64,000 bases of DNA from an uncultured Eubacteriales bacterium (GTDB lineage: Bacteria; Bacillota; Clostridia; Peptostreptococcales; Anaerovoracaceae): the NCBI GenBank assembly GCA_902774265.1, contig CACYHR010000007.1, positions 6,141-70,140 of the forward strand, in the 5' to 3' direction. Shown one piece after another: positions 23,132-58,454 of the stretch. The notes beneath the pieces are model-generated. The model saw nothing but the letters and a program-made list of their open reading frames with translations. It had not been told where the DNA came from and did no database searches. The translations under genes were made by a program, and so were the position numbers. The first letter of the stretch is position 1, and each line of letters starts with the position of its first letter.

Positions 23132-24057
23132 CTGCCTGTATACACATGCCGCACTACATATTGCGGATCATTTGTCATATTCTTGAACATCCGCCCCAGA
23201 TATTCACCTATGACCCCGAGAAACATCATTATCAGTCCCGAGAAGAAGCATATGCTTACCATCATTGAATACCAGCCTACCGCGCTTGTCGGTGCAAAAA
23301 GCTTTTTGAGTACTATGGCGATTGCACCGATTATTCCGAGTATTGAGAAGAATATACCTACCCTCTGCGCTATCCTCAGCGGTACTATGGAATAACCCAT
23401 TATATTGGACCATAGACTTATCAGTTTTTTCAGATTATAGCCCGATGAGCCGTAAGCTCTGTCATAGTGTTCCACCGGTACGCATGCTATATTCCTTGTA
23501 GTCCTGAGGAAGAGTCCCTGCAGGTGAGTGTAATGGCTCCTGTATTCTATTACGTAATCCCTTACGAATTTCCTTATTATCCAGAAGCTCGATGTCTTCA
23601 GTTCCTTAGGTTTGCCGATCAGTATCCTTACGGAGATATAATTGACCCAGCTGCCGAAATTTCTGAATATGCTGTGGTGCTTTTCCGGATAATATCCGTA
23701 TACAATGTCATAGCCTTTGTCGAATTCCTCGAACATCACCGGAAGCTGCGACGGATGAGTCTGCATATCATCATCCATTGCGATAAGTATTTCCCCTTCG
23801 GCATGATTCAGGCCGGCCATGACCGCGTTATGCTGACCGGCATTCTGTGCCAGTTCGATCACTTTGACATACGGATATTCATCGGCAAGTGCCCTTAATT
23901 CACATATCGTATCGCCTCCATCGGGCGAACTGTCATCTACCAGGACGAATTCGTATGGAGTCTTTCCCATCTCTTCCATTTTGGCAGAGGTCAGTTCCAC
24001 TACCTCACGGATAGTGTGTGCAGATTTATAGCAGGGAATTACTATTGAGTACAGCAT
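23125..24057 (-). CDS. GT2 polyprenyl-phosphate glycosyltransferase (GtrB/CsbB/ArnC type), copy a
   Basis: Motifs SIVIPCYKS, VLVDDSSPDG and IAMDDDMQ, plus a C-terminal two-TM hairpin ending GVIGEYLGRMF. The start overlaps the flippase stop by 16 nt. Confidence 0.85.
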   Translation of the reverse strand: MLYSIVIPCYKSAHTIREVVELTSAKMEEMGKTPYEFVLVDDSSPDGGDTICELRALADEYPYVKVIELAQNAGQHNAVMAGLNHAEGEILIAMDDDMQTHPSQLPVMFEEFDKGYDIVYGYYPEKHHSIFRNFGSWVNYISVRILIGKPKELKTSSFWIIRKFVRDYVIEYRSHYTHLQGLFLRTTRNIACVPVEHYDRAYGSSGYNLKKLISLWSNIMGYSIVPLRIAQRVGIFFSILGIIGAIAIVLKKLFAPTSAVGWYSMMVSICFFSGLIMMFLGVIGEYLGRMFKNMTNDPQYVVRHVYTGRK

Positions 24058-25343
24058 TCGATCTCCTTTTTCTCTTTATTAAGCGCTCTGACTGTGATGG
24101 CACCCAGCGATACAGCAAGGAATGTCATAAGGATAAGGTTGACAAGTGCCGCTCCCATGATGCCGTATGATCTGATCAGCGGCCCCGCCATCAGTTTCGC
24201 GGCAACCGCCGCAATTCCGTAGCAGTAGGTAAGCGGTCTCTGCGCTCTGATAACCGCCATCAGTGTGCTGAAATATATGCTGTATGCCAGCATGCCTCCG
24301 CTCACCATTATTACGCACAGCTCCGCTTTGTAATTCGAAAGGTCAGTGCCGAATATGATAGACAGTACAGGTATGCCTATCGTAGCGGCGACGACCACAG
24401 CCAGAACAGCCAGTCCGAGAACCACCAGACACATCTGTCTGATCATTTTTATCAGTCTCCTGAATTTAGCTGCTTCGTGTGACTGCCACATTTCAGCATA
24501 TACGACCAGTACAGGGTTGAATATAAACTGCGTCACCATCTGTACTACATATGTCGGCATAAAAATCTTATTGTATATTGACTGTATCTCATCTGTAAGA
24601 TAAGCATCAATTGCGTATTTCGGTGCGTTACTTATGTACATATTCAGGAACAGGCTCAGAAAGAGCGGGAAACCTTCTATCAGAAGCAGCCTGAATTTGT
24701 CCGCCGTGATCGACGGTTTCATCGTATCCGTATAGAATCTCGTGGCGTTTACCGATGTCAGCATCAGTACGGCAAATGATATGACAAGACATACCATGAC
24801 GGCCAGACACAGATCATGGAACACGATAAGCACGATAACATAAGCTGCTAGTTCCGCCGTATATCTTATCGATGCGGCCTTACCTGCAACATCCAGTCTG
24901 TTTTTCTGCTGCAGATGACCGTGCAGCACATCCGCATATGCCTGTATAGCTTTGATGAGGCAGATGCCCATTACTACAGAGAATTTGGAAAAGCTGTAAT
25001 CTCTGTACATGACACCGAATATGCTGTACATAAGACAGCCTGCCAGCATTGCAGCACAGCTTATGAACCTCATCGCATGGTATTCGCAGAATTTAAAATC
25101 CTCATTGATATCTGAAGACTGATAACGTCTCAGACCATACTGACCGAGGAAATACATCAGGTTGGCTTCCGCCAGCGCTATCGAGAATATACCGGCGTCG
25201 GTCTCTCCGTTCGTCCTTGTCGCTACTGCAAGAACGACCGGACTCTGCATAGCCAGTATCATTGCGTTCACGGCATTCCATATATAGGAACTGCGTCCGG
25301 TATTATTCGTTTTTTCAAGAAATCTGACTATAGCTTTTAACAT
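24042..25343 (-). CDS. MOP-superfamily (Wzx-like) lipid-linked glycan flippase
   Basis: 433 aa with about 12 TM. N-terminal layout and length are typical of polysaccharide biosynthesis (Wzx) proteins. No catalytic motif is expected. Confidence 0.7.
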   Translation of the reverse strand: MLKAIVRFLEKTNNTGRSSYIWNAVNAMILAMQSPVVLAVATRTNGETDAGIFSIALAEANLMYFLGQYGLRRYQSSDINEDFKFCEYHAMRFISCAAMLAGCLMYSIFGVMYRDYSFSKFSVVMGICLIKAIQAYADVLHGHLQQKNRLDVAGKAASIRYTAELAAYVIVLIVFHDLCLAVMVCLVISFAVLMLTSVNATRFYTDTMKPSITADKFRLLLIEGFPLFLSLFLNMYISNAPKYAIDAYLTDEIQSIYNKIFMPTYVVQMVTQFIFNPVLVVYAEMWQSHEAAKFRRLIKMIRQMCLVVLGLAVLAVVVAATIGIPVLSIIFGTDLSNYKAELCVIMVSGGMLAYSIYFSTLMAVIRAQRPLTYCYGIAAVAAKLMAGPLIRSYGIMGAALVNLILMTFLAVSLGAITVRALNKEKKEIECCTQ

Positions 25344-32610: not shown

Positions 32611-34737
32611 CTAAGAAGCCTGCTTAATCTCATATATGTCAACATCATCGTTTGTATAGCACAGACTGTAGTCGCCGTTTGTCAGATCCTCTGCATCCGT
32701 AAACCTCTTGGAAACTACCACGTAATCGACGCCCAGCTCTCTTGCCTCTTCGCCGCGGTCTTCGTTTTCCGGATCGTACAGTTCCATATTCTTTTCGATC
32801 ATATCCCTTCGCAGCGTCCATTCCGCAGCAGGCAGATTGTAGCCCGAACCCGAAATATAGCTGTATCTGTTGGCATAGACCGGATAGAGGAAGAATCTGT
32901 TATCCCAGCGGTTCTCGTAGGAATACTTTTTGAGAGATACGCTGTAATATCTGTCGGTAGCCAGCAGCGCATCTTCGTCGGTATTGTTTTCGAGCCATTC
33001 CATAGCCTGATATTCATCATTGCTGATGCTGAGATATTTGTTATATGTCCTGCCCGGATCTGCAGCCTCAACCGCATTACCGATATGTCTGCAATAATAA
33101 ACTCCAAGTGACGCTGTCGTAAGCACGAGGCATATGCACATACATCCGGCACATATCTTAAATACCGTCCCGGATCTGCCCGGTTCCGGAGATTCCGCCT
33201 TGTCCTCCATATCCTCCATGAACCAGTAGGCTACCACCGGCGCGAGAAAAACCGTGACCAGTCCGAAATACACCTGGCTGTGTCCGCTGTAATTGAGGAG
33301 GAACATTGCGATAAAACCGACTGCACACTCAGCGTAGACCAGCACTCTTGCAGGTTCATATGCTTTTCGTCCGCTCAGCACCATGAAAAGCTCCCTTATA
33401 TAGCCTATGCAGAACGGCAGGAAGTACACCGTAAAGAAAAAGATCAGGAATACGACCATTACCATCATCAGTCTGACGGAATACGGCATCCCTATCGATT
33501 TGAGGAATTCTATAAGAGGTTTCTTCCAGAACGCGATGTTGCTGATGCTCGCAAAGGATATAATGGAGTTTCCTCCGCCGTTGGTCTGACCCTTGGAACC
33601 GAGTACGGTGAAATATACCAGTACGAATCCGCAGGTGTATGCCATCAGCGGCAATATCGATCTGAGCGGCATCTTCCTCATGATCATGCCGAGTAAAAAT
33701 GTACCCCAGAGCGCGCCGACAGTGACTGCACCCATCGGTCCCTTGATCCCTGTAGTCAGCATTATGAACAGCAGACAGATAATACCTTCGATCCGGTGCT
33801 TTTTATCCCCTGCCTCAAAGGAGCCGTACCATTTATCAAAGATCACTATGGTCATCAGCACAGCCGCGATACCGTAACCGGCAGAATTGTCATTTTCGAG
33901 TATGAATTTGAAGGCGAGCGATGATCTGAGATTTCTCGTCATATATATATTGGACAGGAGAAGGATCATACAGTACAATCCCGCTCTTTCTTTTTTTTCA
34001 GTCATCTCAGTGAAAAAGCTGCAGAGAGATATACCGAAAGTGAATGCCGTCATAAGAGGTCCGAACGAAAAGCTGACGAAATCTGTCTCAAGACCGAAGA
34101 GCCTTACCGGAATCGAAAACAGCATTTCACCGAAAATATGATATGTTATGATCCTCCCGTTTATCCATGGACTCTCCAGCGGATAATCGTGAGAGAGCGA
34201 GTTTACAAGCCCAAGGTGGTATGCCTTGTCGGGATTCATGTATGTAAAATCGCTCAGTTCAGGAGCCAGATACTGATACTGTGTATCAAGCAGACAGTAA
34301 AGCAGTATCAGCGCCATGAATACGCAGAACCAGACATCCGTCTCCAGGGGCTTCCATCCCCTGAACGGATCTTCTGAGCGGTCCCTGATTATCTTTACAA
34401 GATAGATTCCAGACAGCAGCGGACATACTGTATACAACAGTATATTGCTGCCGGTCAGGTCATTGATAAAATACAGTATAAGATCGATGCTCCAGCCGGC
34501 GAAAAGTGCCAGGGCAAGCGTCGTGATGCGCTGACCTTTGTCCAGTCCCGCTGCTTTGATGATCAGCAGACCCGGCAGAATCATGTATACAAGTAAAAAT
34601 AATACCATTACAGCATATCCGGGCACGGATGCCCCGTAAACCGTTATGCTGATGACGATCATTGCCGCAGCTGCGGCAATGCACAGTATCCTTATTATAT
34701 TCTGTATTCTGTTTTGCTGATCGCTGAGTGTATTCAT
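32611..34737 (-). CDS. Large polytopic membrane protein with a ~200-aa C-terminal extracytoplasmic domain (GT-C-like candidate transferase)
   Basis: 708 aa with about 13-15 TM, then a soluble tail (DEYQAMEWLENNTDEDALLATDRYYS...VDYVVVSKRF). The architecture resembles GT-C enzymes, but I cannot see a diagnostic motif. Confidence 0.5.
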   Translation of the reverse strand: MNTLSDQQNRIQNIIRILCIAAAAAMIVISITVYGASVPGYAVMVLFLLVYMILPGLLIIKAAGLDKGQRITTLALALFAGWSIDLILYFINDLTGSNILLYTVCPLLSGIYLVKIIRDRSEDPFRGWKPLETDVWFCVFMALILLYCLLDTQYQYLAPELSDFTYMNPDKAYHLGLVNSLSHDYPLESPWINGRIITYHIFGEMLFSIPVRLFGLETDFVSFSFGPLMTAFTFGISLCSFFTEMTEKKERAGLYCMILLLSNIYMTRNLRSSLAFKFILENDNSAGYGIAAVLMTIVIFDKWYGSFEAGDKKHRIEGIICLLFIMLTTGIKGPMGAVTVGALWGTFLLGMIMRKMPLRSILPLMAYTCGFVLVYFTVLGSKGQTNGGGNSIISFASISNIAFWKKPLIEFLKSIGMPYSVRLMMVMVVFLIFFFTVYFLPFCIGYIRELFMVLSGRKAYEPARVLVYAECAVGFIAMFLLNYSGHSQVYFGLVTVFLAPVVAYWFMEDMEDKAESPEPGRSGTVFKICAGCMCICLVLTTASLGVYYCRHIGNAVEAADPGRTYNKYLSISNDEYQAMEWLENNTDEDALLATDRYYSVSLKKYSYENRWDNRFFLYPVYANRYSYISGSGYNLPAAEWTLRRDMIEKNMELYDPENEDRGEEARELGVDYVVVSKRFTDAEDLTNGDYSLCYTNDDVDIYEIKQAS

Positions 34738-38901: not shown

Positions 38902-40164
38902 TCATCTGATAACGGCATGCACAGCTCTTTCTGATGCGTGTCCGTCGTCAAGATATGTAAATCTGTTATTAAATTCAAAAATCCGTTTCTGCCACTCATC
39001 ACTGCGGAACCATGTGTCAGATATTCTGATCAGCTCTGTCAGTTCCTCCTGATTCACCGCGACCGGACCCGGCAGTTCTTCAAGACCCAAATAAAGGCCT
39101 CTCAGGCTGTCTCTGTAGTATTCCAGATCATACATATAAAAGATTACCGGTCTTCTAAGCACGGAATAATCAAAGAAGACGCTCGAATAGTCTGTCATCA
39201 GCATGTCAGCTGCTATATACAGTTCGTTGATCTCCTGCCACCCGGATACATCTATAATAAATCCGCTGTATCGGTCCCGCTTTTCCTTATCCCGGATAAA
39301 ATAATGGGTTCTGAACAGTATCACATACTCGTTGCCGAGATCTTCTCTCAGTTTTTCCATATCGAGAGGCTCTCTGTAGCCATACTCTCCCACATCAGTC
39401 AGATTATCCTCCCTGTATGTAGGCGCATACAGTATAGCCTTCTTTCCCTCAGGAATCCCTATTCTCTCTCTGATCTCTTTTATCCGAGCCGGGCTGCAGT
39501 CCGCCAGAGAATCGTTTCTGGGATAGCCTGTCTCCAGTATCACATGCTCCAGGCCAAGCTCCTTCAGACCGAACGCGGAACTCAGTTTTTCACTGCAGTA
39601 TGCTGAAGGCGATATGAGGTGATCATATCTTCTGACATCGCTGAATATAGCCTTTTTCGTTTCTTCGGCTGATTCAGTTGCCTCAGTTGTAATATCAAGA
39701 CCCAGTTTTTTGAGCGGCGTGCCATGCCAGCACTGCGTATAGATCTGGCCTTTCCTTTTTCCGACTGCTGCAGGCAGTCTGGTGTTTGTGAACCAGTATC
39801 CCGCAGTTGCATATGTCCTGTAATAGTCCTCCGAGCCCCATCTTACCAGTTTTGTGCGGGGGTTATCCCCGACATACCTGAATTCGTCCATAACACTGTC
39901 CCTGAAACACCATACGAAGCTGTATGAGCTGTACTCATCACAGCCGAGAAGATATTCGTATATCGCCCGCGGGCTGTCAGTGTATTTGCGTCCTTTGAAA
40001 CACTCAAATACTATCAGTTTTTCATCTATCGGCATGCCGGAGAATTTATTATATCTGTGTTCTCTCTTGCGGCCGATCAGACTGTTTCCAAACCGTCCTA
40101 TCCATTTTCCCTGTTTTTCGGCATCTATAAGATATTTTTTAATGCTTTTTTTGAGCTGTCCCAT
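38902..40164 (-). CDS. CDP-glycerol glycerophosphotransferase family protein, TagB-like (short type)
   Basis: Motifs YTDSPRAIYEY, QCWHGTPLKKLGLD, LYAPTYRED and MTDYSSVFFDYSVLRRPVIFYMYDLEYY. Confidence 0.85.
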   Translation of the reverse strand: MGQLKKSIKKYLIDAEKQGKWIGRFGNSLIGRKREHRYNKFSGMPIDEKLIVFECFKGRKYTDSPRAIYEYLLGCDEYSSYSFVWCFRDSVMDEFRYVGDNPRTKLVRWGSEDYYRTYATAGYWFTNTRLPAAVGKRKGQIYTQCWHGTPLKKLGLDITTEATESAEETKKAIFSDVRRYDHLISPSAYCSEKLSSAFGLKELGLEHVILETGYPRNDSLADCSPARIKEIRERIGIPEGKKAILYAPTYREDNLTDVGEYGYREPLDMEKLREDLGNEYVILFRTHYFIRDKEKRDRYSGFIIDVSGWQEINELYIAADMLMTDYSSVFFDYSVLRRPVIFYMYDLEYYRDSLRGLYLGLEELPGPVAVNQEELTELIRISDTWFRSDEWQKRIFEFNNRFTYLDDGHASERAVHAVIR

Positions 40165-40167
40165 ATT

Positions 40168-43100
40168 TCACCGTCCGCAGCTCCGAAGGAATTCATATGT
40201 CCTCCGGCAGTTTTGCTTATCTCTGTATGCGTAGAAACGATCCAGCTTTCCGGCATATGCCGGCTGTATCCTGTATCCGTCGCTTATCACTCCCCCGACT
40301 GCTTCCAGCAGTTCATCCGTATCAGCAGCACATACCCCCGGGAGATCCTTCCTGAGATCTATATATGCTCCGTGTTCCTCCAGATATCTGTCCAGATCAA
40401 AGTGATAATAAATCACAGGCTTGTCCATGTAGAGCATATCCCAGCATACGCTTGAATAATCAGTGATCATCATGCTGCTTCGCATCATTATCTCATTCAG
40501 CGGCTCTGCACCAAACGGGACAAGCCGTATCCTGTCTGAGCTGTCAGCAGTGAAATCACTCAGATATCCTGCAAATTTCGGATGAAGATAGAATATCGCT
40601 GTAAGATCATTCTCTTCCAGCATTTCCGTGAACCTGCTGCTGCTTATAAGGCCCTGATAATGCCTGTAGTAATCGCTATTTCTGAATTCCTCATCTCCCG
40701 AATCCTCAAGCCACACCCTCCAGGTAGGCATTATAAGCAGAATTCGGTTCTGCCCGCTGCTCTTGTCTTCAAGCGCATCCCATCGTGTAAATCCGGTTAT
40801 CGGAACATTCTCCTCTTTGTAGCCGAAATTCTGTACTATAATATCTTTTTCGAGATCGGATGTCGCTGCAAAGTATTTCATCGGCCTCATTCCCTGACTG
40901 CCAAAAATATGATCCACTCTCTTCATTGCGGTTACCCCGTGCTGCAGGAAGAACACATCCTTTTTTTCTATCCTGCTGAATACAAGGCTCTGCTTTGTCC
41001 TCCAGGCATACAGATGCTGCACTGAATCTGTAGCTATATAAATGTTTGCCGCCATGGCATATACCATATGCCTTATGCTCATGAAAGGTATGACCGCCCG
41101 TCCGTAGCTGCTGACATATTGGTAATCTTCTGATTTCTTATCTATAACATAATAGTATTTATTTCTTTCGCTTTCCGGCAGACTCTTCCTGCAGTATTCA
41201 AAATAGCGCACTCCGTTGTCCTGTGCAGTCCTGCAGAATTTTTCATATATTATATGTATATCTTTTTTCCGGAGTTTTTTTCTGAGGACGAGGTATATAA
41301 GCATGGCTGCGATTTCTTTGATCCTTGTCATGCAGTTGTCGTAGCCGTTATCCTCTCTGCAGCACAGTTTCAGGCGGGCGCCGCTGCCTGTATACGGATA
41401 CAGTATCATTTTTTCGCCGAGGCGCGACTGCATATTTCCGAGTTTGAGCATGTATCTGATCCGGCGTTTTCTGACTCTGACTCTGAGCCTGAATTCCCTG
41501 CCGCCGGTCTCCGCCAGTACAAAACAATTCCATCTCAGCGGTACAAACTCAGCAGCGGAATAATCGACATCTGCGGTAACGGTGCAGCCCTCAGCACTGC
41601 CGGTGCAGACAGTATCAGCCTTAATTATCGTATTTTCGTCATTGTCCAGTGTAAAGATCACTGCTTTTATTTCATCTGCATCCCAGCCGCACATATCTAT
41701 TTTCACCCGGAAGCCATTTCTTCCGAATTTCAGTGAGTGCAGCATTCCGACATCAGAAGTATACGGTCTCTGTACCTGCAGATTCGGGAAAATGCGGTCA
41801 TTATCAAGCTTTTTAATTCTTTTCGCTGCTTTTTTTGATCCTGCAGCCGCAAGGATATCATCCTTCTTTGTGCGCGGTGGCGAGTCCGATGTAATGATAT
41901 AGTCAAAACGATCATTGAATTTATCATGCAGCATCTGCCCTATCCCGTCTTTGAACCATTTACGGTAGAGCAGTACGACAGAATCAGATATCTCCGCAAA
42001 CTGAGCTGTCGCTTCTATATCTGACAGATTTTTGAACCTCTCCGGCGAAATGACTCTGAGCTGTCTCCGGCTGTTCCTCGAATAATCCTCGATCTGCAGT
42101 TTTGATTCATCGCCCTCCAGAAAACATCTGAGCAGATTCTCCGTACAGTCCGGCGAATCATATTTTATGAGATCTCCGATCAGACTGTCTGAAGAGTAAT
42201 CATCGCAAAGGCTGCTGTCCGATGAAATGCAGCTGCAGAATTCCTCAACATCATATATCTGCCTGAACGGCAGATCTTTCACATCAAAATACATGCCTCG
42301 ATCCTTCATGTATTTTTCATAATCATACATAAACAGGACTATCGGCTTTGATGTAAGCGCATAATCAAAGAAAACGCTTGAATAATCCGTTATCAGTGCG
42401 TCAGTACAGTTCAGGAATTCATAATTGCTTATATCTGACGGAAACGCTCTGATATGATCATACTCATCAAATGATATACCGCCGGCAATTATAGGATGAA
42501 ATCCGACAAACATCAGCTGATCACTACGCATGCTGCGATCCAGCCTGCTGAAGATATTCCGTACCTCTTCAAAGTACGATTCATTTTCTATATCCCTGTT
42601 GCTTGTTCCTCTCCATGTCGGCATATAGGCATAGACCTTTTTATCGCTTATCCCCAGTCTGCTTCGAATGGCTTCGGCATTATCATGATCAAAGAAGACT
42701 TCATTACGCGGATAACCGCTCATCACTATGCGGCCGGTATACAATCTCTCAAGGTTATAGTCTCTCATAATCACCGATCTGGTGAATTCATTAGGGAACA
42801 TGATATGTGTAGCCTGCAGAAAATTATGCTGGACATTGTACATGGATTCGATGCCTTCCCGCATCTCCTTTCCCAGTGTCTTGAGAGGGGTCCCGTGCCA
42901 CGTCTGCAGGTACTTCTGTCCGGATCTGCGAACAAAAAAAGCAGGCAGCGAGGCATTGGATATGATATATTCTGCTGTTGCCAGTACTTTTGCGTATTCT
43001 TCGCTCCTTATATCGAGCAGCTCTGCTTTTATACCGGTATCGGCAGCCCGTCCGGCTTGTTCCTCTTTGTTGTTTACGGCAAAGAACATTCTGTATTTGC

Positions 43101-43293
43101 CCGGATACAGTCTTTCTATCTCTCCGGCACAAACCAAAGGAGAGTCACTTATGGTTTTACCATGAAATGACTCCAGCAGTATAGTATTCGGACAGATATC
43201 CGAGTGTTCGAGGTGATATCCGTAGCTGTATGTCAGATCCTCTGTCCTGTCGTGGATCTGTCTGATTGTTTTTTTAATCTTTTTTCTGATCAT
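40168..43293 (-). CDS. Fusion protein with two CDP-glycerol glycerophosphotransferase domains (TagB-like N-terminal half, TagF-like C-terminal half)
   Basis: N half: QTWHGTPLKTLGKE, YMPTWRG and ITDYSSVFFDYALTSKPIVLFMYDYEKY. C half: IYEKFCRTAQDNGVRYFEYC, FLQHGVTAMKRVD, LIMPTWRVW and ITDYSSVCWDMLYMDKPVIYYHFDLDRY. Confidence 0.85.
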   Translation of the reverse strand: MIRKKIKKTIRQIHDRTEDLTYSYGYHLEHSDICPNTILLESFHGKTISDSPLVCAGEIERLYPGKYRMFFAVNNKEEQAGRAADTGIKAELLDIRSEEYAKVLATAEYIISNASLPAFFVRRSGQKYLQTWHGTPLKTLGKEMREGIESMYNVQHNFLQATHIMFPNEFTRSVIMRDYNLERLYTGRIVMSGYPRNEVFFDHDNAEAIRSRLGISDKKVYAYMPTWRGTSNRDIENESYFEEVRNIFSRLDRSMRSDQLMFVGFHPIIAGGISFDEYDHIRAFPSDISNYEFLNCTDALITDYSSVFFDYALTSKPIVLFMYDYEKYMKDRGMYFDVKDLPFRQIYDVEEFCSCISSDSSLCDDYSSDSLIGDLIKYDSPDCTENLLRCFLEGDESKLQIEDYSRNSRRQLRVISPERFKNLSDIEATAQFAEISDSVVLLYRKWFKDGIGQMLHDKFNDRFDYIITSDSPPRTKKDDILAAAGSKKAAKRIKKLDNDRIFPNLQVQRPYTSDVGMLHSLKFGRNGFRVKIDMCGWDADEIKAVIFTLDNDENTIIKADTVCTGSAEGCTVTADVDYSAAEFVPLRWNCFVLAETGGREFRLRVRVRKRRIRYMLKLGNMQSRLGEKMILYPYTGSGARLKLCCREDNGYDNCMTRIKEIAAMLIYLVLRKKLRKKDIHIIYEKFCRTAQDNGVRYFEYCRKSLPESERNKYYYVIDKKSEDYQYVSSYGRAVIPFMSIRHMVYAMAANIYIATDSVQHLYAWRTKQSLVFSRIEKKDVFFLQHGVTAMKRVDHIFGSQGMRPMKYFAATSDLEKDIIVQNFGYKEENVPITGFTRWDALEDKSSGQNRILLIMPTWRVWLEDSGDEEFRNSDYYRHYQGLISSSRFTEMLEENDLTAIFYLHPKFAGYLSDFTADSSDRIRLVPFGAEPLNEIMMRSSMMITDYSSVCWDMLYMDKPVIYYHFDLDRYLEEHGAYIDLRKDLPGVCAADTDELLEAVGGVISDGYRIQPAYAGKLDRFYAYRDKQNCRRTYEFLRSCGR

Positions 43294-43299
43294 TTCGCA

Positions 43300-44133
43300 T
43301 CAGATACCGACATCTGAATTATCTTCACTGACATTGTCGTTCTCTTTTTCTGCGGAAAGGTTGTTCAGAAGATCATCTTCCGTTTTTTCCTTTTTCTTCT
43401 TTTTTCTGGATTTGCAGTTGACCTTAAAGTAATCCACAGCCTCTTGATACGGTCCGTCAAAGCATATCCTTCCCCTGTGCAGCACGATGCCTCTGTCGCA
43501 CAGCGCTCTGCCGACACTGATATTGCTTATGGTCATGAGCAGTGTATTGTTTTCGTCAAGCTTTTTTTGAAGACGCGATATGAATTTGAGGTCATATTTT
43601 GTACCGCCGAAACTGAATGCATCATCAAACAGCATTATATCAGGACGATTTTCGGTATTAAGCAGGAATCCGAGTCTTGCCGCCGCTCCCTTAGGATATA
43701 GTTTCACAGGCTGATCGATGATTTTTTCAAGTTTTGCAAACTCGATATAGCTTTGTTCTTTTTCACTTATTGTTTTTTCCGGCCACCCGAGAATAGTCCC
43801 CATAATATGCAGATTTTCCCGGCCTGACAACCCGTTATCGAATCCGAGCCTGTTATCCATAACTGAAGTCAGATCCCCGTTTATCCTGAACTTACCGCCA
43901 TCAGGCTTAATTGTACCGGAAAGTATTTCCATAAGCGTAGTCCTTCCCGATCCTACGACGCCCAGCAGTCCGACTTTTTCTCCCCTGTTTATTTCAAAAC
44001 TGACATCGCGGAGAACCTTGGCTGTTCTGCCCGTATTCATGCCCAGAATAAGATGCTGCAGTCTCTGATGATTGCTTTTGTAATATCTGTATGATTTTGA
44101 AATATTACTGACCGATATAACCGGATTTTCCAC
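43300..44133 (-). CDS. tagH: TagH/Wzt-like ABC transporter nucleotide-binding protein with substituted catalytic motifs
   Basis: ABC NBD layout adjacent to an ABC-2 permease. Walker A reads GVVGSGRT (Arg where Lys is expected), the signature position reads YPKGA, Walker B reads IMLFDD, and the H-loop position reads ISN. Lys/Glu/Asp-rich C-terminal tail. Confidence 0.75.
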   Translation of the reverse strand: MENPVISVSNISKSYRYYKSNHQRLQHLILGMNTGRTAKVLRDVSFEINRGEKVGLLGVVGSGRTTLMEILSGTIKPDGGKFRINGDLTSVMDNRLGFDNGLSGRENLHIMGTILGWPEKTISEKEQSYIEFAKLEKIIDQPVKLYPKGAAARLGFLLNTENRPDIMLFDDAFSFGGTKYDLKFISRLQKKLDENNTLLMTISNISVGRALCDRGIVLHRGRICFDGPYQEAVDYFKVNCKSRKKKKKEKTEDDLLNNLSAEKENDNVSEDNSDVGI

Positions 44134-44145
44134 AGGCAGTCCCTC

Positions 44146-44949
44146 CTAAATAATCTCCGCCATAATATTCTTCAGGCGTTTATAAAGCAAGACTGTTATT
44201 ATCAGCATCACCAGCATCACACATGCAAAATATTCAGTGTATATAGTCCTCTGCCAGAACCATTCATTAAAGGCAATAGCGCTTCTGTATCCTTCTATCA
44301 GATAAGTGATAGGATTGAGCAGAAAAATATGGCGGTGCCGCGGCCTGGAGTCAAAGAGAACACCGGACAACCAGAAAAACGCCGGTCTGATAGCTTTGAT
44401 AAAATCAAAAATGTCTGCGCTCACCACATTCAGCATTCCGAACATAAATGACCACAGATAATTGAACAGAATAAGCAGTATTGTTACCAGAGGGATCTGC
44501 ACCCAGTATATGCTTGGTCTTACTCCGAGTATGACTGCGATGCACAATACAAAGATGACCATGATCAGATGGATCAGAAGATTCGTCAATACCGGGATCA
44601 TAGGTATCACCGGTATGGGATATCCTGCTTTGATCACGAGTGCTTTATTCTGTTTGAAACAGACGGGACCTCCGCCTATAAGATCTGAAATAAAAAACCA
44701 TCCGGACATACCCGAGATAAGCCAGACAAAATACGGACAGTCGATTCCGTCGATATCCTTCGCACCCTTGAAACCCATGCTCATGGCAAAATAAAACATT
44801 ACCATGTACATCAGCGGTTTACAGAGCGACCAGAACCATCCGAGATCCGACGAAGAATTCTTTTTTTTGAGATACATCTTCGCGATCCTGAAAATGCGCG
44901 GAAACAGCCTGATATTACATTGTATTATTTCTCTGAACGCCTTAACCAT
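44146..44949 (-). CDS. tagG: ABC-2 type (TagG-like) glycopolymer export permease
   Basis: Six TM. The N-terminal RIFRIAKMYLKKKNSSSDLGWFWSLCKP aligns with the TagG N-terminus as remembered. I prefer the ATG at 44949 over the track TTG at 44970, which lies inside the promoter -10 region. Confidence 0.8.
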   Translation of the reverse strand: MVKAFREIIQCNIRLFPRIFRIAKMYLKKKNSSSDLGWFWSLCKPLMYMVMFYFAMSMGFKGAKDIDGIDCPYFVWLISGMSGWFFISDLIGGGPVCFKQNKALVIKAGYPIPVIPMIPVLTNLLIHLIMVIFVLCIAVILGVRPSIYWVQIPLVTILLILFNYLWSFMFGMLNVVSADIFDFIKAIRPAFFWLSGVLFDSRPRHRHIFLLNPITYLIEGYRSAIAFNEWFWQRTIYTEYFACVMLVMLIITVLLYKRLKNIMAEII

Positions 44950-44958
44950 AGTTACTGC

Positions 44959-44986
44959 ATTATAGCACAAATCTGTAACCTTACAA
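44959..44986 (-). promoter_or_regulatory. Strong candidate sigma-A promoter (TTGTAA-16 nt-TGcTATAAT) for tagG and downstream genes
   Basis: On the minus strand, -35 is at 44986..44981 and -10 at 44964..44959 with an extended TG. The tagG ATG begins only 9 nt after the -10. Confidence 0.55.
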
Positions 44987-45033: not shown

Positions 45034-46119
45034 TCACTCACCGGCATTTTTGAAATCCTCTTTGAGGTAGTGATGTTTGTAATACTTCCTGTATTCCTTC
45101 ATATAATCTGTATAGTCGGAATCGAGTCTTTTCTTCACTTCATCGCTGACCTGCCACTGAGGTATATCGTATTTTTCCAGTATGTATTTGCCGAGATATT
45201 TCGTTGCCTTACGTGCTCCCATGAGATTCAAATGATGATGATCATAAAAATCCTTACGGTAATCTATTCCGCTCTCTTCCATCACCTCATCCAGGTTGAA
45301 ATCAAAATAGTCTATTCCCGCTTCTTCGCAAAGACGCGATGCTGTCAGATGATTTCCATAGGTGAAAGTTGTCCCCGGCATAGTGACTATCAGCAGATTT
45401 ATACCGTTCTTCTTTGCGCAGTCAGCGATCTTCAGATACTCCTCCCATGCGTGTTCATCATAATCCTTGGGTTTTTCCTCCGGATCGTAGAATTTCCTGT
45501 CCGGAAACGTCCGTATCTCCTTGACTCTGTGCTGACCTCTCATGAAATCATGATCGGGATAATTGGCCTCAAGATAATCTTCGTATGTGATTTCATTCCA
45601 CCTCGAATGGTACCTGAGTACAGGAAAAGCAAAACTGAGCAAACTCTCGTCATGATCCATCTTCTTTATTTCCGCAACTGTCTGCATCTTAAGCATGGAA
45701 AAATTCTTATAATCGAGAGACTTTCTGATAAACGGTTCCTCTTTTGCATACGGATAGCCCGAAAAAAGCTGTGTTATCCCCAGTATAACGAGCTTTGGTT
45801 TCTGGTATTTCAGAGCCTCCTCCAGATCGAACAGGGCTATCTCGGGAGCCTGCTTTGAATCACCTCTTGTATATGCCGATATTCCGTAATTGTGCCAGAA
45901 TTCGTTTGGCGACAGTCCGTTTCTTACCGTGCTGCTGGCAACTATGAGCACATCAAGAGAATCCCTGTCTGCTTCATAGAAGGATCTTGACTGTCTTGTT
46001 TCCTCGCTGTCATAAGGAATATACAGTATGCCGAGCGGTATCAGCAGAAATGCGGCAATCAGCAGAAATACGATGACCCTTATTATCAATTTTAAGCTTA
46101 GATTCTTTTCGTCTGTCAC
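45034..46119 (-). CDS. DltD-like/SGNH-like membrane-anchored acyl-transfer protein
   Basis: N-terminal TM, then LDVLIVASSTVRNG (Ser block) and C-terminal FYDHHHLNLMG (Asp/His block), as in DltD-type esterase/transferase folds. The assignment rests on layout and operon context. Confidence 0.55.
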   Translation of the reverse strand: MTDEKNLSLKLIIRVIVFLLIAAFLLIPLGILYIPYDSEETRQSRSFYEADRDSLDVLIVASSTVRNGLSPNEFWHNYGISAYTRGDSKQAPEIALFDLEEALKYQKPKLVILGITQLFSGYPYAKEEPFIRKSLDYKNFSMLKMQTVAEIKKMDHDESLLSFAFPVLRYHSRWNEITYEDYLEANYPDHDFMRGQHRVKEIRTFPDRKFYDPEEKPKDYDEHAWEEYLKIADCAKKNGINLLIVTMPGTTFTYGNHLTASRLCEEAGIDYFDFNLDEVMEESGIDYRKDFYDHHHLNLMGARKATKYLGKYILEKYDIPQWQVSDEVKKRLDSDYTDYMKEYRKYYKHHYLKEDFKNAGE

Positions 46120-46122
46120 ATC

Positions 46123-47628
46123 TTACTCCATCATCGATCTGAGTTCAGTGAGATTTATCTTTCCGTTGAAACTCTTTGGCAGTACATCGAGTTTTTTATA
46201 TTTGCGCGGCACCATAAACGCCGGAAGTATTTCCCTGAGATGGCGTCCGATCGCTTTCTGATCTGTCTCTCCCGAATAGAACAGCCATATCTGCTGCTTT
46301 TCTTTATTATACATGCAGACTGCCTCTCCTGTTTCAGGCATTGCAAGCACTGCCGCCTCAATCTCTCCGAGCTCCACCCTGTGTCCCATATGCTTGATCT
46401 GGTGATCCTTTCGGCCGAGGAACTCGAGATTGCCGTCCGGCATATATCTTCCGATATCTCCGGTGGCATAGATTATTTCTTCGTATACATCATTTGCAGG
46501 GTTTACAATAAACGCTTCCTTTGTCTTTTCCGGATTCCTGTAATAACCGAGAGAAATCGAAGTTCCGCGTACGCATATCTCGCCCTGTTCTCCGTATTCC
46601 GCCTCTCTGCCGTTCTCATCAAGCAGTATTATACCGGTATTTCTGAAAGGAACTCCTATTGGCAGAGTTTCATCATCCTGTACCGGATGATCTACAACAT
46701 AATATGTGCAGCTCGCCGTGATCTCCGTTGGCCCGTAGTGATTGACAAACAAAGCATCCGGCAGATTATCCTGCCAGACACGCAGATGTCTGCATGGCAT
46801 TACCGATCCGGTAAAGATCACCTTTTTGACGGTTTCAAGCTTTTTGCTGTCAAATACCCTGAACTCCGAACAGAGAACCAGCGCTCCTACCACCCAGCAA
46901 ATCGTGCTTACTCTGTGTTCGTTTATATAATCGAAAAGCGCGGCCGGTATAGAGAAATATTTTTTCGGTATAAATACCGTCTGCGCACCGGTCTTAAGCG
47001 GTATATACAGATCTCTTATTGCCGCAATATAGTCGAGAGGCGACTGATTTCCGTATATCTCATCCGGGCCGAGATCAAATGCTTCCGTAAAAGCCTCTAT
47101 ATAATCTATCAGCTGCCGGTGTGATTCTATCACGCCCTTTGGCACTCCCGTAGATCCTGATGTGAATATCACATATGCGGGATCTGTGTCCATTGCACGG
47201 CTTCTTACTGCATCAAGTGCCGCCTTGTCCGTATCCGCACAGATCAGCTCCGGAGCAGTAACAACTTCACCGTCAAAATCCAGCCCGGAAACGAATTCCA
47301 TGTCTTCTTCTCCTGCAAGCATAAGAGATGCTCCTACAGTCTTTATAATCAGATTGATCCTGTATGCAGGAAGATCACGGCTGACAGGAACATAATAGGC
47401 ACCGGCATACAGCACTCCGTAATACATGACCGGGGTCATAAGGTTCTTTTCCGCTACGACAAGCACCGGCTTACGCGGATCGATCTTCTTAGAGAGCAGA
47501 CTCCCGGCCCTGCGTGAAAGTTCGAGCAGCCTGCCGAATGTTATGCTGTCTTTTTCATCCCGGTAAACAAGTCTCTCCGGATAATCAGCTGCAGTTTTTT
47601 CAAGATATTCAAGAACGTTTATATTCAT
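46123..47628 (-). CDS. Stand-alone adenylation enzyme, DltA-like (carrier-protein ligase)
   Basis: 501 aa. Motifs YVIFTSGSTGVPKGV, NHYGPTE, YATGDIG and GRKDHQIKHMGHRVELGEIE. Its size and adjacency to a 77-aa carrier protein match DltA. Substrate is not inferable. Confidence 0.75.
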   Translation of the reverse strand: MNINVLEYLEKTAADYPERLVYRDEKDSITFGRLLELSRRAGSLLSKKIDPRKPVLVVAEKNLMTPVMYYGVLYAGAYYVPVSRDLPAYRINLIIKTVGASLMLAGEEDMEFVSGLDFDGEVVTAPELICADTDKAALDAVRSRAMDTDPAYVIFTSGSTGVPKGVIESHRQLIDYIEAFTEAFDLGPDEIYGNQSPLDYIAAIRDLYIPLKTGAQTVFIPKKYFSIPAALFDYINEHRVSTICWVVGALVLCSEFRVFDSKKLETVKKVIFTGSVMPCRHLRVWQDNLPDALFVNHYGPTEITASCTYYVVDHPVQDDETLPIGVPFRNTGIILLDENGREAEYGEQGEICVRGTSISLGYYRNPEKTKEAFIVNPANDVYEEIIYATGDIGRYMPDGNLEFLGRKDHQIKHMGHRVELGEIEAAVLAMPETGEAVCMYNKEKQQIWLFYSGETDQKAIGRHLREILPAFMVPRKYKKLDVLPKSFNGKINLTELRSMME

Positions 47629-47734
47629 TTGCGATATCTCCTTTTTACTCCGTACAGACTGTCCCCTTTCCCTGCAAACAGTTCAGTCCGCAGTTCAGTC
47701 AGGGGTTCCGGTTTACATATGCCGGACACATATG

Positions 47735-49315
47735 TCAGAACGTACGGTATATGAATGTATTCGCATCATAGCCGACACCATAGACGCCGAACACGATTAT
47801 TGCTATAAATCCTCCCAGATATATGAACCATCTGAACAGGAGATTCTGTCTTCCGATGACATCTCTGATCACATAGCCCTTTTCCTGTGCGATACTTACT
47901 CCAAGCCAGATCAGAAGACAGACAGCTATCAGCTGAAAATCCCTCGGAAGCATGCCAAGGGTAAATATTCCTCCGTTGAACAGTTCCTCAGGGTTGAACA
48001 CGAACATTGCTCTGATCATGCGGACCGCAACCAGAAAACGCGGTCCTCTGTCAAAGAATCTCCCTATTGTGATCAGAGTAAAGGTCCTGATCATGAGGAA
48101 AAGCTTCCAGCTCCAGGCATCCGTATTGATTCGCAGTATTTCTGCCAGCCTCTTGAACTGCGGCTGAAAAATCAATCCTATGTTGATAAAAAACGCCTGA
48201 TAAAATCCATATACAAGATATTTGATCTGTGCTCCGTGCCAGATGCCGATGATCACGAACGAGGCTGTCTGGGCAATGATTATCGGAGTCAGTTTTCCTA
48301 TCCTGTCTCCGAATATATTTCTTGCTTTTTTTGTCATTTTGCTGAATGACTTAGAAAGTGATATAGGATAAAAGATATAGTCCCTGCACCAGTTTCCCAG
48401 ACTTACATGCCAGCGTCTCCAGAATTCATTCATATTGAGGGAGAAATACGGCCTTTCAAAATTCTCGATCAGTTTGATCCCGAATATCTGTGACACTCCC
48501 TGAGATATATCCATACCTCCGGAAAAATCCGCGTACAGCTGTATCGAATATCCGACTATGCCCGCTATCACATAAACGCCCGAGTAATCCTTATAATTAT
48601 CAAAGACCGTACTAACCAGTACAGCGACACGATCCGCTATGACCAGTTTTTTGAAGAAACCCCACATTATAAGCTGGGCTCCCCTTGTGACTCTTGTATA
48701 GTCAAATTCATGTCCTTCATACAGCTGCAGTGCAAGCTGATCATAACGGCTGATAGGCCCCTGTATGATCAGCGGGAACCATGACACAAAGAGGGCAAAT
48801 CTGACCAGGCTTGTGTCCGGATCGTATTTGCCTCTGTAAAGATCGATTATGTAGCTCATCGACTGGAATGTATAGAAAGATATACCCAGCGGTATGAGTA
48901 TGCTCGATCCGACATGCATCCAGTCGGCATGCAGCAGCTCTGCGAGCATATCAATATAGGTCCCGAAATACTTCATTACTGCAAGTATTCCGAAATTCAG
49001 GATCAGGACGGCGAGCATCCATTTTTTCTTTTCTTTTTTGCTCTCCGCCTTCAGTTCCTTGCGTGCGGCCCTGTCGAATTCTCCTTCGCTGAGGCGCTTT
49101 CTGTAGCGTTCCTCACATTTACCTATCTGTCTGCCGCCATAGTATGTAGTGACAGTTGTTATAAGCAAAAAAACAAAAGACTTCGGGCTTGCCAGCAGAT
49201 AGAATATATAGCTGGCAGCCAAAAGCACCATCCAGCGCTTCTTTGCCGGCATCACAAAATATATGCCGGCAATTACCGCAAGAAAGATTATAAAACTGAT
49301 CGATGTTATGGGCAT
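47735..49315 (-). CDS. MBOAT family membrane O-acyltransferase, AlgI-type rather than DltB-type
   Basis: 526 aa. Motifs PLGISFYTFQSMSYIIDLYRG and EFWRRWHVSLGNWCRDYIFYP. Has a charged insertion (KCEERYRKRLSEGEFDRAARKELKAESKKEKKK) after TM2. Confidence 0.85.
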   Translation of the reverse strand: MPITSISFIIFLAVIAGIYFVMPAKKRWMVLLAASYIFYLLASPKSFVFLLITTVTTYYGGRQIGKCEERYRKRLSEGEFDRAARKELKAESKKEKKKWMLAVLILNFGILAVMKYFGTYIDMLAELLHADWMHVGSSILIPLGISFYTFQSMSYIIDLYRGKYDPDTSLVRFALFVSWFPLIIQGPISRYDQLALQLYEGHEFDYTRVTRGAQLIMWGFFKKLVIADRVAVLVSTVFDNYKDYSGVYVIAGIVGYSIQLYADFSGGMDISQGVSQIFGIKLIENFERPYFSLNMNEFWRRWHVSLGNWCRDYIFYPISLSKSFSKMTKKARNIFGDRIGKLTPIIIAQTASFVIIGIWHGAQIKYLVYGFYQAFFINIGLIFQPQFKRLAEILRINTDAWSWKLFLMIRTFTLITIGRFFDRGPRFLVAVRMIRAMFVFNPEELFNGGIFTLGMLPRDFQLIAVCLLIWLGVSIAQEKGYVIRDVIGRQNLLFRWFIYLGGFIAIIVFGVYGVGYDANTFIYRTF

Positions 49316-57269: not shown

Positions 57270-58442
57270 TTAGTTGTCTTTTTTGAAGAATTTGAATTGC
57301 TTGTCTGTAAAAGCACTCGGATTGTATGCTACCAGCACAACATCCGGCCGGTATTTCTCACAGGCATAGCTGATGCTCTTATCATATCTGCGCAGATCAA
57401 CTGCTATGACCTTTGATGCATCCAGTGCAATAAACGGCTCTATCACACAGGAAAAAGAGTCTCTTACAAGAAGTATCACCGGGCCGTCTTTATTCAGCTT
57501 GTTTGTCAGCTCATTGACAGCATATTCCTTGCCTATATATGTCGAATAGCTGTTATTGACAAAATCCGATCTTTTTTTGATATTATCCCAGAGATACACA
57601 GCATCAGCGAACTCACCTTTTCGCACATCTGTCCCGCTGTCACTTTCACCGGTAAACTCCATATCCGTTTCAAATTCCGGATAAATGATGTCAATATCAT
57701 CCAGACCGGCATACCACGCGCCGACTCTCCTGCCTACGGCTCCCAGCATATAATCAGTATACGTTTTTTTATCATAGTTATCGTAATCATAGTGTGATTT
57801 ATCAACTGAATATCCGTATTTTTTGCCGAGATGATCCATAATCATGCCCGATGCATTCATTCCTGTCTCCGGTTTCCAGTGATGATCGGTCGTGAAGAAG
57901 TATTCTTCCCACTTATCCGCATCCATATTATCGCGTACGTCAACGACATCGACACCGTTTTCCTTCAGTCCTGCCGCCATCTCATCCGCATTTTCATTTC
58001 CACCTGTATGCATGCCCGGAGGCATGACAGAATCATCCTTTATCTTAAAAGGCAGCTGAGCATACAGAAACTTTATCCCCATTTCTTCTGTCTGATCACG
58101 AAGTTTTGTTACCGCATCTATGTAGTCGGACATATCTTTTTTCTTCTTATTATACATTATCTGACCGTTGGTCAGTTTAAGTACATCATAATTACCGTCA
58201 GTCCCGGGAACCAGTGTCATCCCCGTCATCCTGTAGAATCCGCCGTTGAGATTGATCCAGGTGTAACGGAACTGAAAGTTTTCGGTTATGCTTTCCTCTA
58301 TTTCCGACCTGAGAGCCGTAAAACCTTTATAATCAAAGAAAGAACGGGCAAGGGATCTTGATCTGTAAACAGTTCCCGCACCTATGACAAAAATCAGTAT
58401 CAGGAAAAATAATGTCAGTATTTTTCTTCCTGTTTTCTCCAT
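57270..58442 (-). CDS. DHHW-motif protein (AlgJ/AlgX/PatB-like extracytoplasmic O-acyltransferase partner of MBOAT)
   Basis: N-terminal TM, FFTTDHHWKPETG motif, and a position directly downstream of an AlgI-type MBOAT. Confidence 0.8.
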   Translation of the reverse strand: MEKTGRKILTLFFLILIFVIGAGTVYRSRSLARSFFDYKGFTALRSEIEESITENFQFRYTWINLNGGFYRMTGMTLVPGTDGNYDVLKLTNGQIMYNKKKKDMSDYIDAVTKLRDQTEEMGIKFLYAQLPFKIKDDSVMPPGMHTGGNENADEMAAGLKENGVDVVDVRDNMDADKWEEYFFTTDHHWKPETGMNASGMIMDHLGKKYGYSVDKSHYDYDNYDKKTYTDYMLGAVGRRVGAWYAGLDDIDIIYPEFETDMEFTGESDSGTDVRKGEFADAVYLWDNIKKRSDFVNNSYSTYIGKEYAVNELTNKLNKDGPVILLVRDSFSCVIEPFIALDASKVIAVDLRRYDKSISYACEKYRPDVVLVAYNPSAFTDKQFKFFKKDN

Positions 58443-58454
58443 CCGAATGCTCTC

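Follow-up and report, generated by a model that had tools for sequence, protein, structure and literature searches.

Within a 64,000-nucleotide stretch of a genome assembly from an uncultured Eubacteriales bacterium of the rumen, a member of the family Anaerovoracaceae (GCA_902774265.1, contig CACYHR010000007.1, positions 6,141 to 70,140; the whole stretch is hereafter called the window), a large envelope-polymer locus encodes an ATP-binding cassette (ABC) nucleotide-binding subunit (NBD) of the TagH/Wzt fold, in which the motifs of ATP hydrolysis are substituted. We observed that this loss is shared by a whole conserved group of proteins. We consider it rather likely that the NBD would bind ATP without hydrolysing it, as a subunit of a TagG-type channel for polymer export, and the exporter would probably work without ATP hydrolysis. 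An earlier, sequence-only reading of this gene had proposed a catalytically impaired or repurposed NBD, and the comparisons presented below back this proposal with a conserved group that lacks the hydrolysis residues.

The catalytic motifs of a TagH-fold subunit are substituted

The NBD protein gave a PF00005 match of 47.5 bits (cut-off 25). This was the single PF00005 match among the 44 window open reading frames (ORFs) of at least 150 amino acids that were scanned, in agreement with its earlier description as the only ABC ATPase of the locus. Its best curated-family matches were the TagH models NF010066 (136.5 bits, cut-off 320) and NF010065 (131.6 bits, cut-off 538), below both equivalog cut-offs. 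Among solved structures, the closest sequence match was TarH (6jbh, E-value 1.6e-40), and Wzt of A. aeolicus and TagH were also matched. The AlphaFold2 model, built with 37 relatives in the alignment, had a mean predicted local distance difference test (pLDDT) score of 89.5, with at least 93 in each 10-residue block through residue 240. When this model was searched with Foldseek, the top matches were ABC NBDs throughout, and the nearest were S. aureus TarGH, WzmWzt, B. subtilis TagH and A. herbarius TarH, with template modelling (TM) scores of 0.7-0.8. The NBD has a TagH fold. The C-terminal carbohydrate-binding domain of Wzt (PF14524) had no match in the protein, which extends 37 residues beyond the NBD core as an acidic, disordered tail. 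From these sequence matches, the NBD descends from TagH/TarH; it is not filed as a TagH equivalog because both the curated score and five defining catalytic features failed. A predicted complex of two copies of NBD residues 1-242 with ATP and Mg scored 0.00 in two control-free runs, a result that has no bearing either way.

The motif register was set by aligning the NBD residue by residue, with HMMER, to TarH (6jbh) and Wzt (6amx/6m96), together with an hmmalign table, and 220 TagH/Wzt domains served as the canonical reference. The canonical domains were near-invariant at the positions concerned, with the Walker A Lys, S147, E171 and D177 each present in 220/220 and H203 in 219/220. The five motif substitutions first picked out by eye (Walker A, signature, Walker B, D-loop and H-loop; Table 1) were all upheld by the profile alignments and by the structure-based alignments. 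In the NBD, Walker B reads DIMLFDD versus the canonical D(I/V)LxxDE, the D-loop reads SFGG versus SVGD, and the H-loop region reads TLLMTISNIS versus TxxFVSH. S203 falls in the His column of the profile, and N204 in that of the phmmer alignment to TarH, so that the H-loop is free of His under both registers, as had been read. The earlier view of a normal Q-loop region stood only in part: GRENL is kept, with N107, but upstream, at the column of residues 93 and 95 that we take to be the Q-loop position, D93 and R95 stand in place of the canonical E (174/220) and G (191/220).

A conserved group shares the loss

A word-indexed protein search returned 13 relatives with 41-66% identity and 213-407 bits, with canonical Wzt proteins apart at 147 bits or less. 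An exhaustive search was run over 1.84 billion representatives, and its best 150 matches were used. We aligned 267 TagH/Wzt domains of 216 proteins to one profile and scored four hallmarks, namely the Walker A Lys, the signature S/T-x-G, the catalytic Glu and the H-loop His. The distribution of hallmark changes was bimodal: 222 domains had none, three had one (two of these being fragments), and 42 had at least two. The last class consists of 40 whole proteins of 244-292 amino acids, the window's own among them, and two fragments. The substitutions are not private to this contig, since 39 other proteins carry the same kind of substitutions and share the loss with the window's NBD in one group. 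The database names of group members are generic, for example 'ATP-binding cassette domain-containing protein [Bacillota bacterium]'.

Within the group, the H-loop His was found in 0/40 proteins, the signature S/T-x-G in 1/40 and the D-loop Asp (D177) in 8/40. The catalytic position 171 was occupied by E in 11 proteins, D in 7, A in 7, G in 5, S in 3, C in 2, and N, T, F, Q and V in one each (n = 40), and Walker A position 64 by R in 24, K in 15 and V in one (n = 40). Positions for nucleotide binding and in the core were kept, including the Walker B Asp (D170, 38/40), the aromatic residue 15 of the A-loop (39/39), G58 (36/40), G63 (39/40), K/R64 (39/40), S/T65 (38/40), N107 (39/40), T197 (40/40), C212 (40/40), R214 (39/39) and G227 (39/39). 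Column entropy in the group was 2.93 at position 171, 2.41 at 177, 2.81 at 203, 2.29 at 147, 3.15 at 150 and 3.45 at 60, all columns at which it was approximately 0 in the 220 canonical domains. The mean entropy over residues 1-240 was 1.92 in the group versus 2.06 in the canonical domains. As judged from these alignments, constraint is relaxed at the hydrolysis columns and not overall. Such a pattern of loss and retention would be expected of a domain that folds, binds nucleotide and meets its permease and is no longer selected for ATP hydrolysis.

Many Wzt-like proteins of ~780-820 amino acids (some of ~525) with two tandem NBDs were also present (P0072-P0138). We considered these proteins as a model of a canonical domain joined to a degenerate one and rejected it, as nearly all halves keep the four hallmarks; the single exception was the first half of P0083, with Gln at the His column.

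The degenerate type is patchy and the sole TagH-type subunit found in six family genomes

A maximum-likelihood tree was calculated from 114 rows: the query, 39 group proteins, 19 relatives' loci, 45 randomly sampled canonical domains of the single-domain kind and 10 tandem canonical domains, with the fragments and the query's identical copy omitted. The 44 degenerate rows fell on one side of a branch with a support of 86 in the Shimodaira-Hasegawa-like approximate likelihood ratio test (SH-aLRT), and they adjoined canonical TagH of Bacillota, including the Anaerovoracaceae's own. When 47 motif columns were removed, the same grouping received an SH-aLRT of 77. A single origin of the degenerate group is favoured by the tree, not proven.

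Among 201 genomes of the family, we found a TagH-type match in 73, at 78 places, and all 78 were classified. The degenerate type was present in six genomes (G000, which is the window's genome, and G140, G103, G025, G024 and G138), canonical forms in 66, and an H-loop-only variant in one (G190). No second TagH-type place was found in any of the six degenerate-type family genomes. The next-best match to the TagH model in the window's genome reached 81 bits and is a subunit of DrrA/NodI type, which has its own ABC-2 permease next to a cobalamin gene; in G140, G103, G025, G024 and G190 the next-best match was at most 75.9 bits, and G138 had a single TagH-type match. The suggestion of a second, canonical NBD from another locus as a partner was not supported: no second TagH-type gene was found in the window's genome (90.8% complete) or in the other degenerate-type genomes. 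Two other genomes of the window's genus had no TagH-type match; these two, G112 and G194, measure 1.6 and 1.3 Mb, and the window's genome 3.26 Mb.

A sample across the class comprised 399 scored genomes. Of the 30 loci listed from it, beside ~100 further matches, two were degenerate (G000 and G024), and the class-level profile scores did not separate the degenerate and canonical types. A scan of a genome collection gave 80 loci among the matches listed, all canonical or fragments, and a metagenome scan gave one true group member, L116.

The H-loop-only variant (L012/L034, contig C68 of G190, with its NBD at 5278-6219 of L034) keeps the Walker A Lys, YSSGM, the DE pair and the D-loop Asp, and has Gly at the H-loop His. 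This NBD already has an acidic tail, R95 and a degenerate-type permease, and G190 shares its genus with G103, in whose NBD three of the four hallmarks are changed. The G190 protein is perhaps an intermediate, but in the tree it stands next to the canonical clade.

The gene is authentic and appears to be under selection

To check for sequencing error, we compared the gene with an independent DNA run from another study (X2). This run spans the whole stretch, with 0 base substitutions within the NBD gene and one in the permease gene; the same codons were present, and the motif losses are not an assembly error. A 181-nucleotide contig from a metatranscriptome library spans 43488-43664, from the Walker B to the H-loop codons, and shows neither a difference nor a deletion. 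The RNA-library contigs reach only parts of the NBD and permease genes. The runs that hold the stretch carry mostly bovine or sheep gut labels, and some carry soil or food-production labels.

Between G103 and G025, the NBD genes differ by two non-synonymous and ten synonymous changes, which gives a ratio of non-synonymous to synonymous polymorphism (pN/pS) of ~0.06 for this single close pair, and the permease genes differ by one non-synonymous and five synonymous changes. On these substitution counts, the degenerate group is under purifying selection.

The C-terminal tail is a gained feature and the gate segment a retained one

Beyond the NBD core, the window's protein carries a tail of low model confidence (Table 1), in which residues 258-277 had pLDDT values below 50. 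An acidic tail, defined as at least eight Asp/Glu in the 22-50 residues past the core, was present in 37/40 proteins of the group versus 1/14 canonical TagH of the same family. In many group proteins a short basic run precedes this tail, and its last residue is frequently Phe, Tyr, Leu, Ile or Val. By this sequence comparison, the acidic tail is a feature gained in the group.

In TarGH, the substrate enters at a segment that lies between strands 1 and 2 and faces the membrane, according to PMC7078476. The corresponding gate segment was conserved in the group, with Y18 in 33/39, N21 in 36/39 and Q23 in 35/39. We considered this segment as a second gained constraint and rejected it; the family's canonical TagH has a similar motif, hence the segment is retained.

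Permease partner and polymer locus

The gene directly upstream of the NBD encodes a TagG-like permease, which had looked intact at the earlier reading, a view that the comparisons support. It matched canonical TagG of the same family over its length (~1e-48 to 1e-57), at 158-189 bits, and the permeases of degenerate systems at 215-263 bits; no Pfam match was obtained at E 0.01, and KpsM/Wzm matches were weak. A TagG-like permease of ~270 amino acids lies directly upstream of the NBD in the window, in the relatives' loci L031, L032, L033, L035 and L116, and in the H-loop-only variant L034. The permease and NBD genes look translationally coupled, because the AGGAGG of the NBD overlaps the permease stop codon. 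Export may run through the Wzx-like flippase, as had been suggested, but a permease-NBD pair that is conserved and coupled speaks for a function of its own.

Table 1. Coordinates of the NBD, its motifs and the adjoining genes in the window (residue numbers refer to the NBD protein).
Feature	Position	Strand	Remarks
TagH/Wzt-fold ABC nucleotide-binding subunit, catalytic motifs degenerate	43300..44133	-	277 amino acids, GTG start
Shine-Dalgarno sequence AGGAGG	44142..44147	-	8 nucleotides before the NBD GTG start, overlaps the permease stop codon
Segment between strands 1 and 2 (TarH gate loop), residues 18-35	44029..44082	-	Retained
Walker A, residues 58-66, GVVGSGRTT	43936..43962	-	Canonical GxNGxGKST; Arg64 at the Lys position
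Signature position, residues 146-150, YPKGA	43684..43698	-	Canonical YSSGM
Walker B and D-loop, residues 165-177, DIMLFDDAFSFGG	43603..43641	-	Asp170 retained; Asp171 replaces the catalytic Glu and Gly177 the D-loop Asp
H-loop region, residues 197-205, TLLMTISNI	43519..43545	-	Without His
C-terminal tail, residues 242-277	43303..43410	-	Basic run KKKKKEK, then acidic stretch ending DVGI; low model confidence
TagG-like ABC-2 permease, partner of the NBD	44146..44970	-	274 amino acids, counted from the listed TTG as putative start
1041-amino-acid protein, two TagF-type (PF04464) domains	40168..43293	-	Start 6 nucleotides after the NBD stop; TarF/TarL/TarB-like matches below cut-offs
420-amino-acid TagF-type glycerophosphotransferase	38902..40164	-	PF04464 350 bits; next gene, same direction

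On the minus strand, the gene order is MBOAT, DltA-like, a 361-amino-acid protein without family match, permease, NBD, the double TagF-type protein and the single TagF-type enzyme. The window as a whole holds nine PF04464 (TagF-type) genes, an LCP ligase gene, a GT4 (TagO/WecA-like) gene, a Wzx-like gene at 24042..25343, genes for an LtaS-like sulfatase-domain protein, three ATP-grasp ligases and a DltA-like adenylating enzyme, and two MBOAT genes, one of them beside an AlgX-like gene. TagF-type or ATP-grasp genes directly adjoin the permease-NBD pair in the window and in L032, L033, L034 and L116. The relatives' neighbours include TagF-type enzymes, sugar-transfer-associated ATP-grasp proteins, Mur-ligase/leucine-rich-repeat fusions, Asp/Glu racemase, D-Ala-D-Ala ligase and PGA_cap proteins; this richness in ATP-grasp, Mur-ligase-like, racemase and PGA_cap genes suggests amino-acid-decorated polymers.

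Several further features of the locus were recorded. The nine PF04464 genes are spread over 8287-57245 and include 853- and 579-amino-acid forms with long N-terminal extensions. Of two MBOAT systems (45034-49315 and 57270-59867), one has an AlgX/DHHW-like protein and the other lies by the DltA-like gene and the 361-amino-acid protein. Two GT2 genes, the Wzx-like gene and a gene for a 438-amino-acid protein that had no family match and may be a polymerase are interspersed among three ATP-grasp ligase genes between 21678 and 30101. The ORFs at 5334-6821 (495 amino acids), 18265-20004 (579 amino acids) and 32611-34737 (708 amino acids) had no Pfam match at E 1e-4.

A proposed export channel and its alternatives

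We propose that the NBD would be the cytoplasmic subunit of a TagG/TagH-type polymer export complex (type V ABC, Wzm-Wzt-like) turned pseudo-ATPase, which would bind Mg-ATP and hydrolyse it very slowly or not at all. Replacement of the Walker A Lys by Arg generally spares nucleotide binding and cripples hydrolysis, and the H-loop His is needed for hydrolysis. An ABC dimer has two composite sites, in each of which the Walker half of one subunit is completed by its partner's signature, and both sites would here be degenerate because one gene supplies both subunits. The bound ATP could be a structural or allosteric ligand, like that of the degenerate sites of heterodimeric ABC exporters, which hold ATP for minutes and have a structural role (PMC7756269). 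The TagG channel would pass a lipid-linked anionic polymer without a cycle of ATP hydrolysis, with a flux that would be driven by synthesis inside and irreversible consumption or ligation outside. The membrane potential acting on the polyanion may be an added drive, and the acidic tail is a likely docking or gating element. In a fuller and more tentative version, which we regard as possible and no better than that, this would be an ABC-derived polyanion export channel without hydrolysis, in which the bound ATP is structural and holds the two degenerate sites together, export proceeds by membrane potential and irreversible capture outside, and the tail mimics the polyanion and plugs or gates the basic cytoplasmic entrance, or docks the TagF-type polymerase that feeds the channel.

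Several points weigh against a channel without hydrolysis. The Lys-to-Arg and Glu-to-Asp changes of the window's NBD are conservative, and the group keeps the Lys in 15/40 and the Glu in 11/40, so residual or alternative catalysis may occur. The absence of hydrolysis is read from sequence, and the energy source for export is itself inferred. The support for a single origin is moderate both with and without the motif columns. A canonical tagH could be encoded in the portion of the window's genome that the assembly lacks (90.8% complete in 110 contigs), and G140 is only 83% complete. One X2 contig, at a depth of 3.3, carries a 1-base deletion at 43562 that cuts the protein to 199 amino acids, which may be an error or may mean that the gene is dispensable in some strains. 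Finally, expression support is weak, as it comes from short RNA-library contigs and such libraries can contain DNA. Beside this, the deletion at 43562 agrees with P0002, a truncated protein of 199 amino acids met in the protein search, and reflects either misassembly or a strain whose copy is broken.

Since charge is retained at both key positions of the window's NBD, the protein could instead be a slow or unconventional but working ATPase, in which Arg64 with Asp171, or Lys148 and Arg95, take over catalysis and export is still driven by hydrolysis. Across the group, Walker A keeps Lys or Arg in 39/40 and Walker B its Asp in 38/40, group-typical basic residues lie near the site (R/K95 in 32/40, K148 in 16/40), and this type is the sole TagH-type subunit in six genomes, so that something must move the polymer. 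However, the positions of the supposed substitutes are variable, with 11 different residues at 171 and an entropy of 2.33 at 148, the H-loop His is absent from 40/40 and the D-loop Asp from 32/40. In ABCB1, moreover, Glu-to-Asp is as disabling as Glu-to-Gln or Glu-to-Ala, with the same residual activity, as reported in PMC7756269. We hold a working ATPase to be unlikely. An assignment of the pair to something other than transport seems to us still less probable: the permease and NBD would then be a membrane scaffold or regulator for the TagF-type and ATP-grasp enzymes, with the tail as docking site, and export would use the Wzx-like flippase or another route. The tail gained in 37/40 proteins, the TagF-type or ATP-grasp genes adjoining the pair in the window and four other loci and the Wzx-like gene in the window all fit this assignment. 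It is at odds with a permease that is a full-length TagG homologue under purifying selection (one non-synonymous versus five synonymous changes), with the retention of the membrane-facing gate segment of the NBD, and with degenerate-type genomes that have no other TagH-type exporter for the TagF-made polymer.

One working ATP site could come from a canonical ABC subunit of another locus, if the NBD formed a mixed dimer with it. Such a dimer is the common design of ABC exporters with a degenerate site (PMC7756269), and the incompleteness of the window's genome leaves room for a partner. Against it, no second TagH/Wzt-type gene was found in 6/6 genomes, and the next-best subunit of the window's genome, of DrrA/NodI type, has its own permease adjacent. 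The Walker and signature halves of the NBD are both degenerate, therefore a mixed dimer would also be without a canonical site by the established geometry of ABC dimers, and we judge this arrangement very improbable. We give hardly any credence to a decaying relic without function, to which the 1-base deletion in an independent low-depth contig and the patchy presence in 6/201 genomes of the family could point, given 40 intact proteins with conserved cores and lengths, a pN/pS of ~0.06, a strong ribosome-binding site with translational coupling, a confident predicted fold and a gained tail that is conserved. Overall, we retain the ATP-binding, non-hydrolysing subunit of a TagG-type channel as the likely role of the NBD.

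Significance and relation to known systems

In the textbooks, TagGH/TarGH and Wzm-Wzt exemplify polymer export powered by ATP hydrolysis; TarGH is also an antibiotic target. If the proposed channel exists as described, it would be the first natural homodimeric ABC exporter without a working ATP site. A conserved lineage that keeps a channel and an ATP-binding subunit and has discarded the hydrolysis machinery in both sites would raise the question of how much translocation needs ATP turnover, with ATP binding alone, an outside sink and the membrane potential as alternatives to it. It would also be a natural counterpart to the Glu-to-Gln and Lys-to-Arg mutants of the field. For uncultured Clostridia of rumen and gut, the locus indicates an unstudied pathway of envelope polymers, with teichoic-acid-type genes beside many amino-acid ligases. 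In a full-text literature search, with most subscription journals outside its coverage, we found no degenerate TagH/Wzt and no homodimeric ABC exporter with both sites degenerate.

Among known systems, the best matches of the NBD are TarGH/TagGH (A. herbarius 6JBH, S. aureus 9CFL and the N-domain of B. subtilis TagH, 7DD0), at 1.6e-40 and TM scores of 0.74-0.80. Like them, the NBD is short and single-domain, is encoded right after a TagG-type permease in a teichoic-acid neighbourhood, and keeps the gate segment. Unlike them, it lacks the Walker A Lys, the signature Ser, the catalytic Glu, the D-loop Asp and the H-loop His; it also differs from TagH in reaching 136.5 bits against a cut-off of 320 and in its acidic tail, mostly absent from the family's canonical TagH. 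TarGH is a measured ATPase (18.5 mol/min/mol in PMC7078476), unlike the predicted non-hydrolysis of the NBD.

Compared with Wzm-Wzt (A. aeolicus 6M96, 7K2T and 8DNE), the NBD shows 29-30% identity and a TM score of ~0.75, and a type V channel-forming architecture would be expected; it differs from Wzt in lacking the PF14524 domain and in its degenerate catalytic motifs. Arg at the Walker A Lys, as in RecA K72R, is a classic change that keeps nucleotide binding and much slows hydrolysis. Those proteins are laboratory mutants of unrelated ATPases, and the Arg is natural in 24/40 members of the group, so this likeness is a lead and not a test. The losses of Glu, His and signature with ATP-binding residues kept resemble most directly the degenerate sites of TM287/288, TmrAB, ABCC1 and CFTR site 1, as these are described in PMC7756269. 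In those exporters one consensus site is always kept and powers the cycle, whereas the NBD gene of the window would give two identical degenerate sites.

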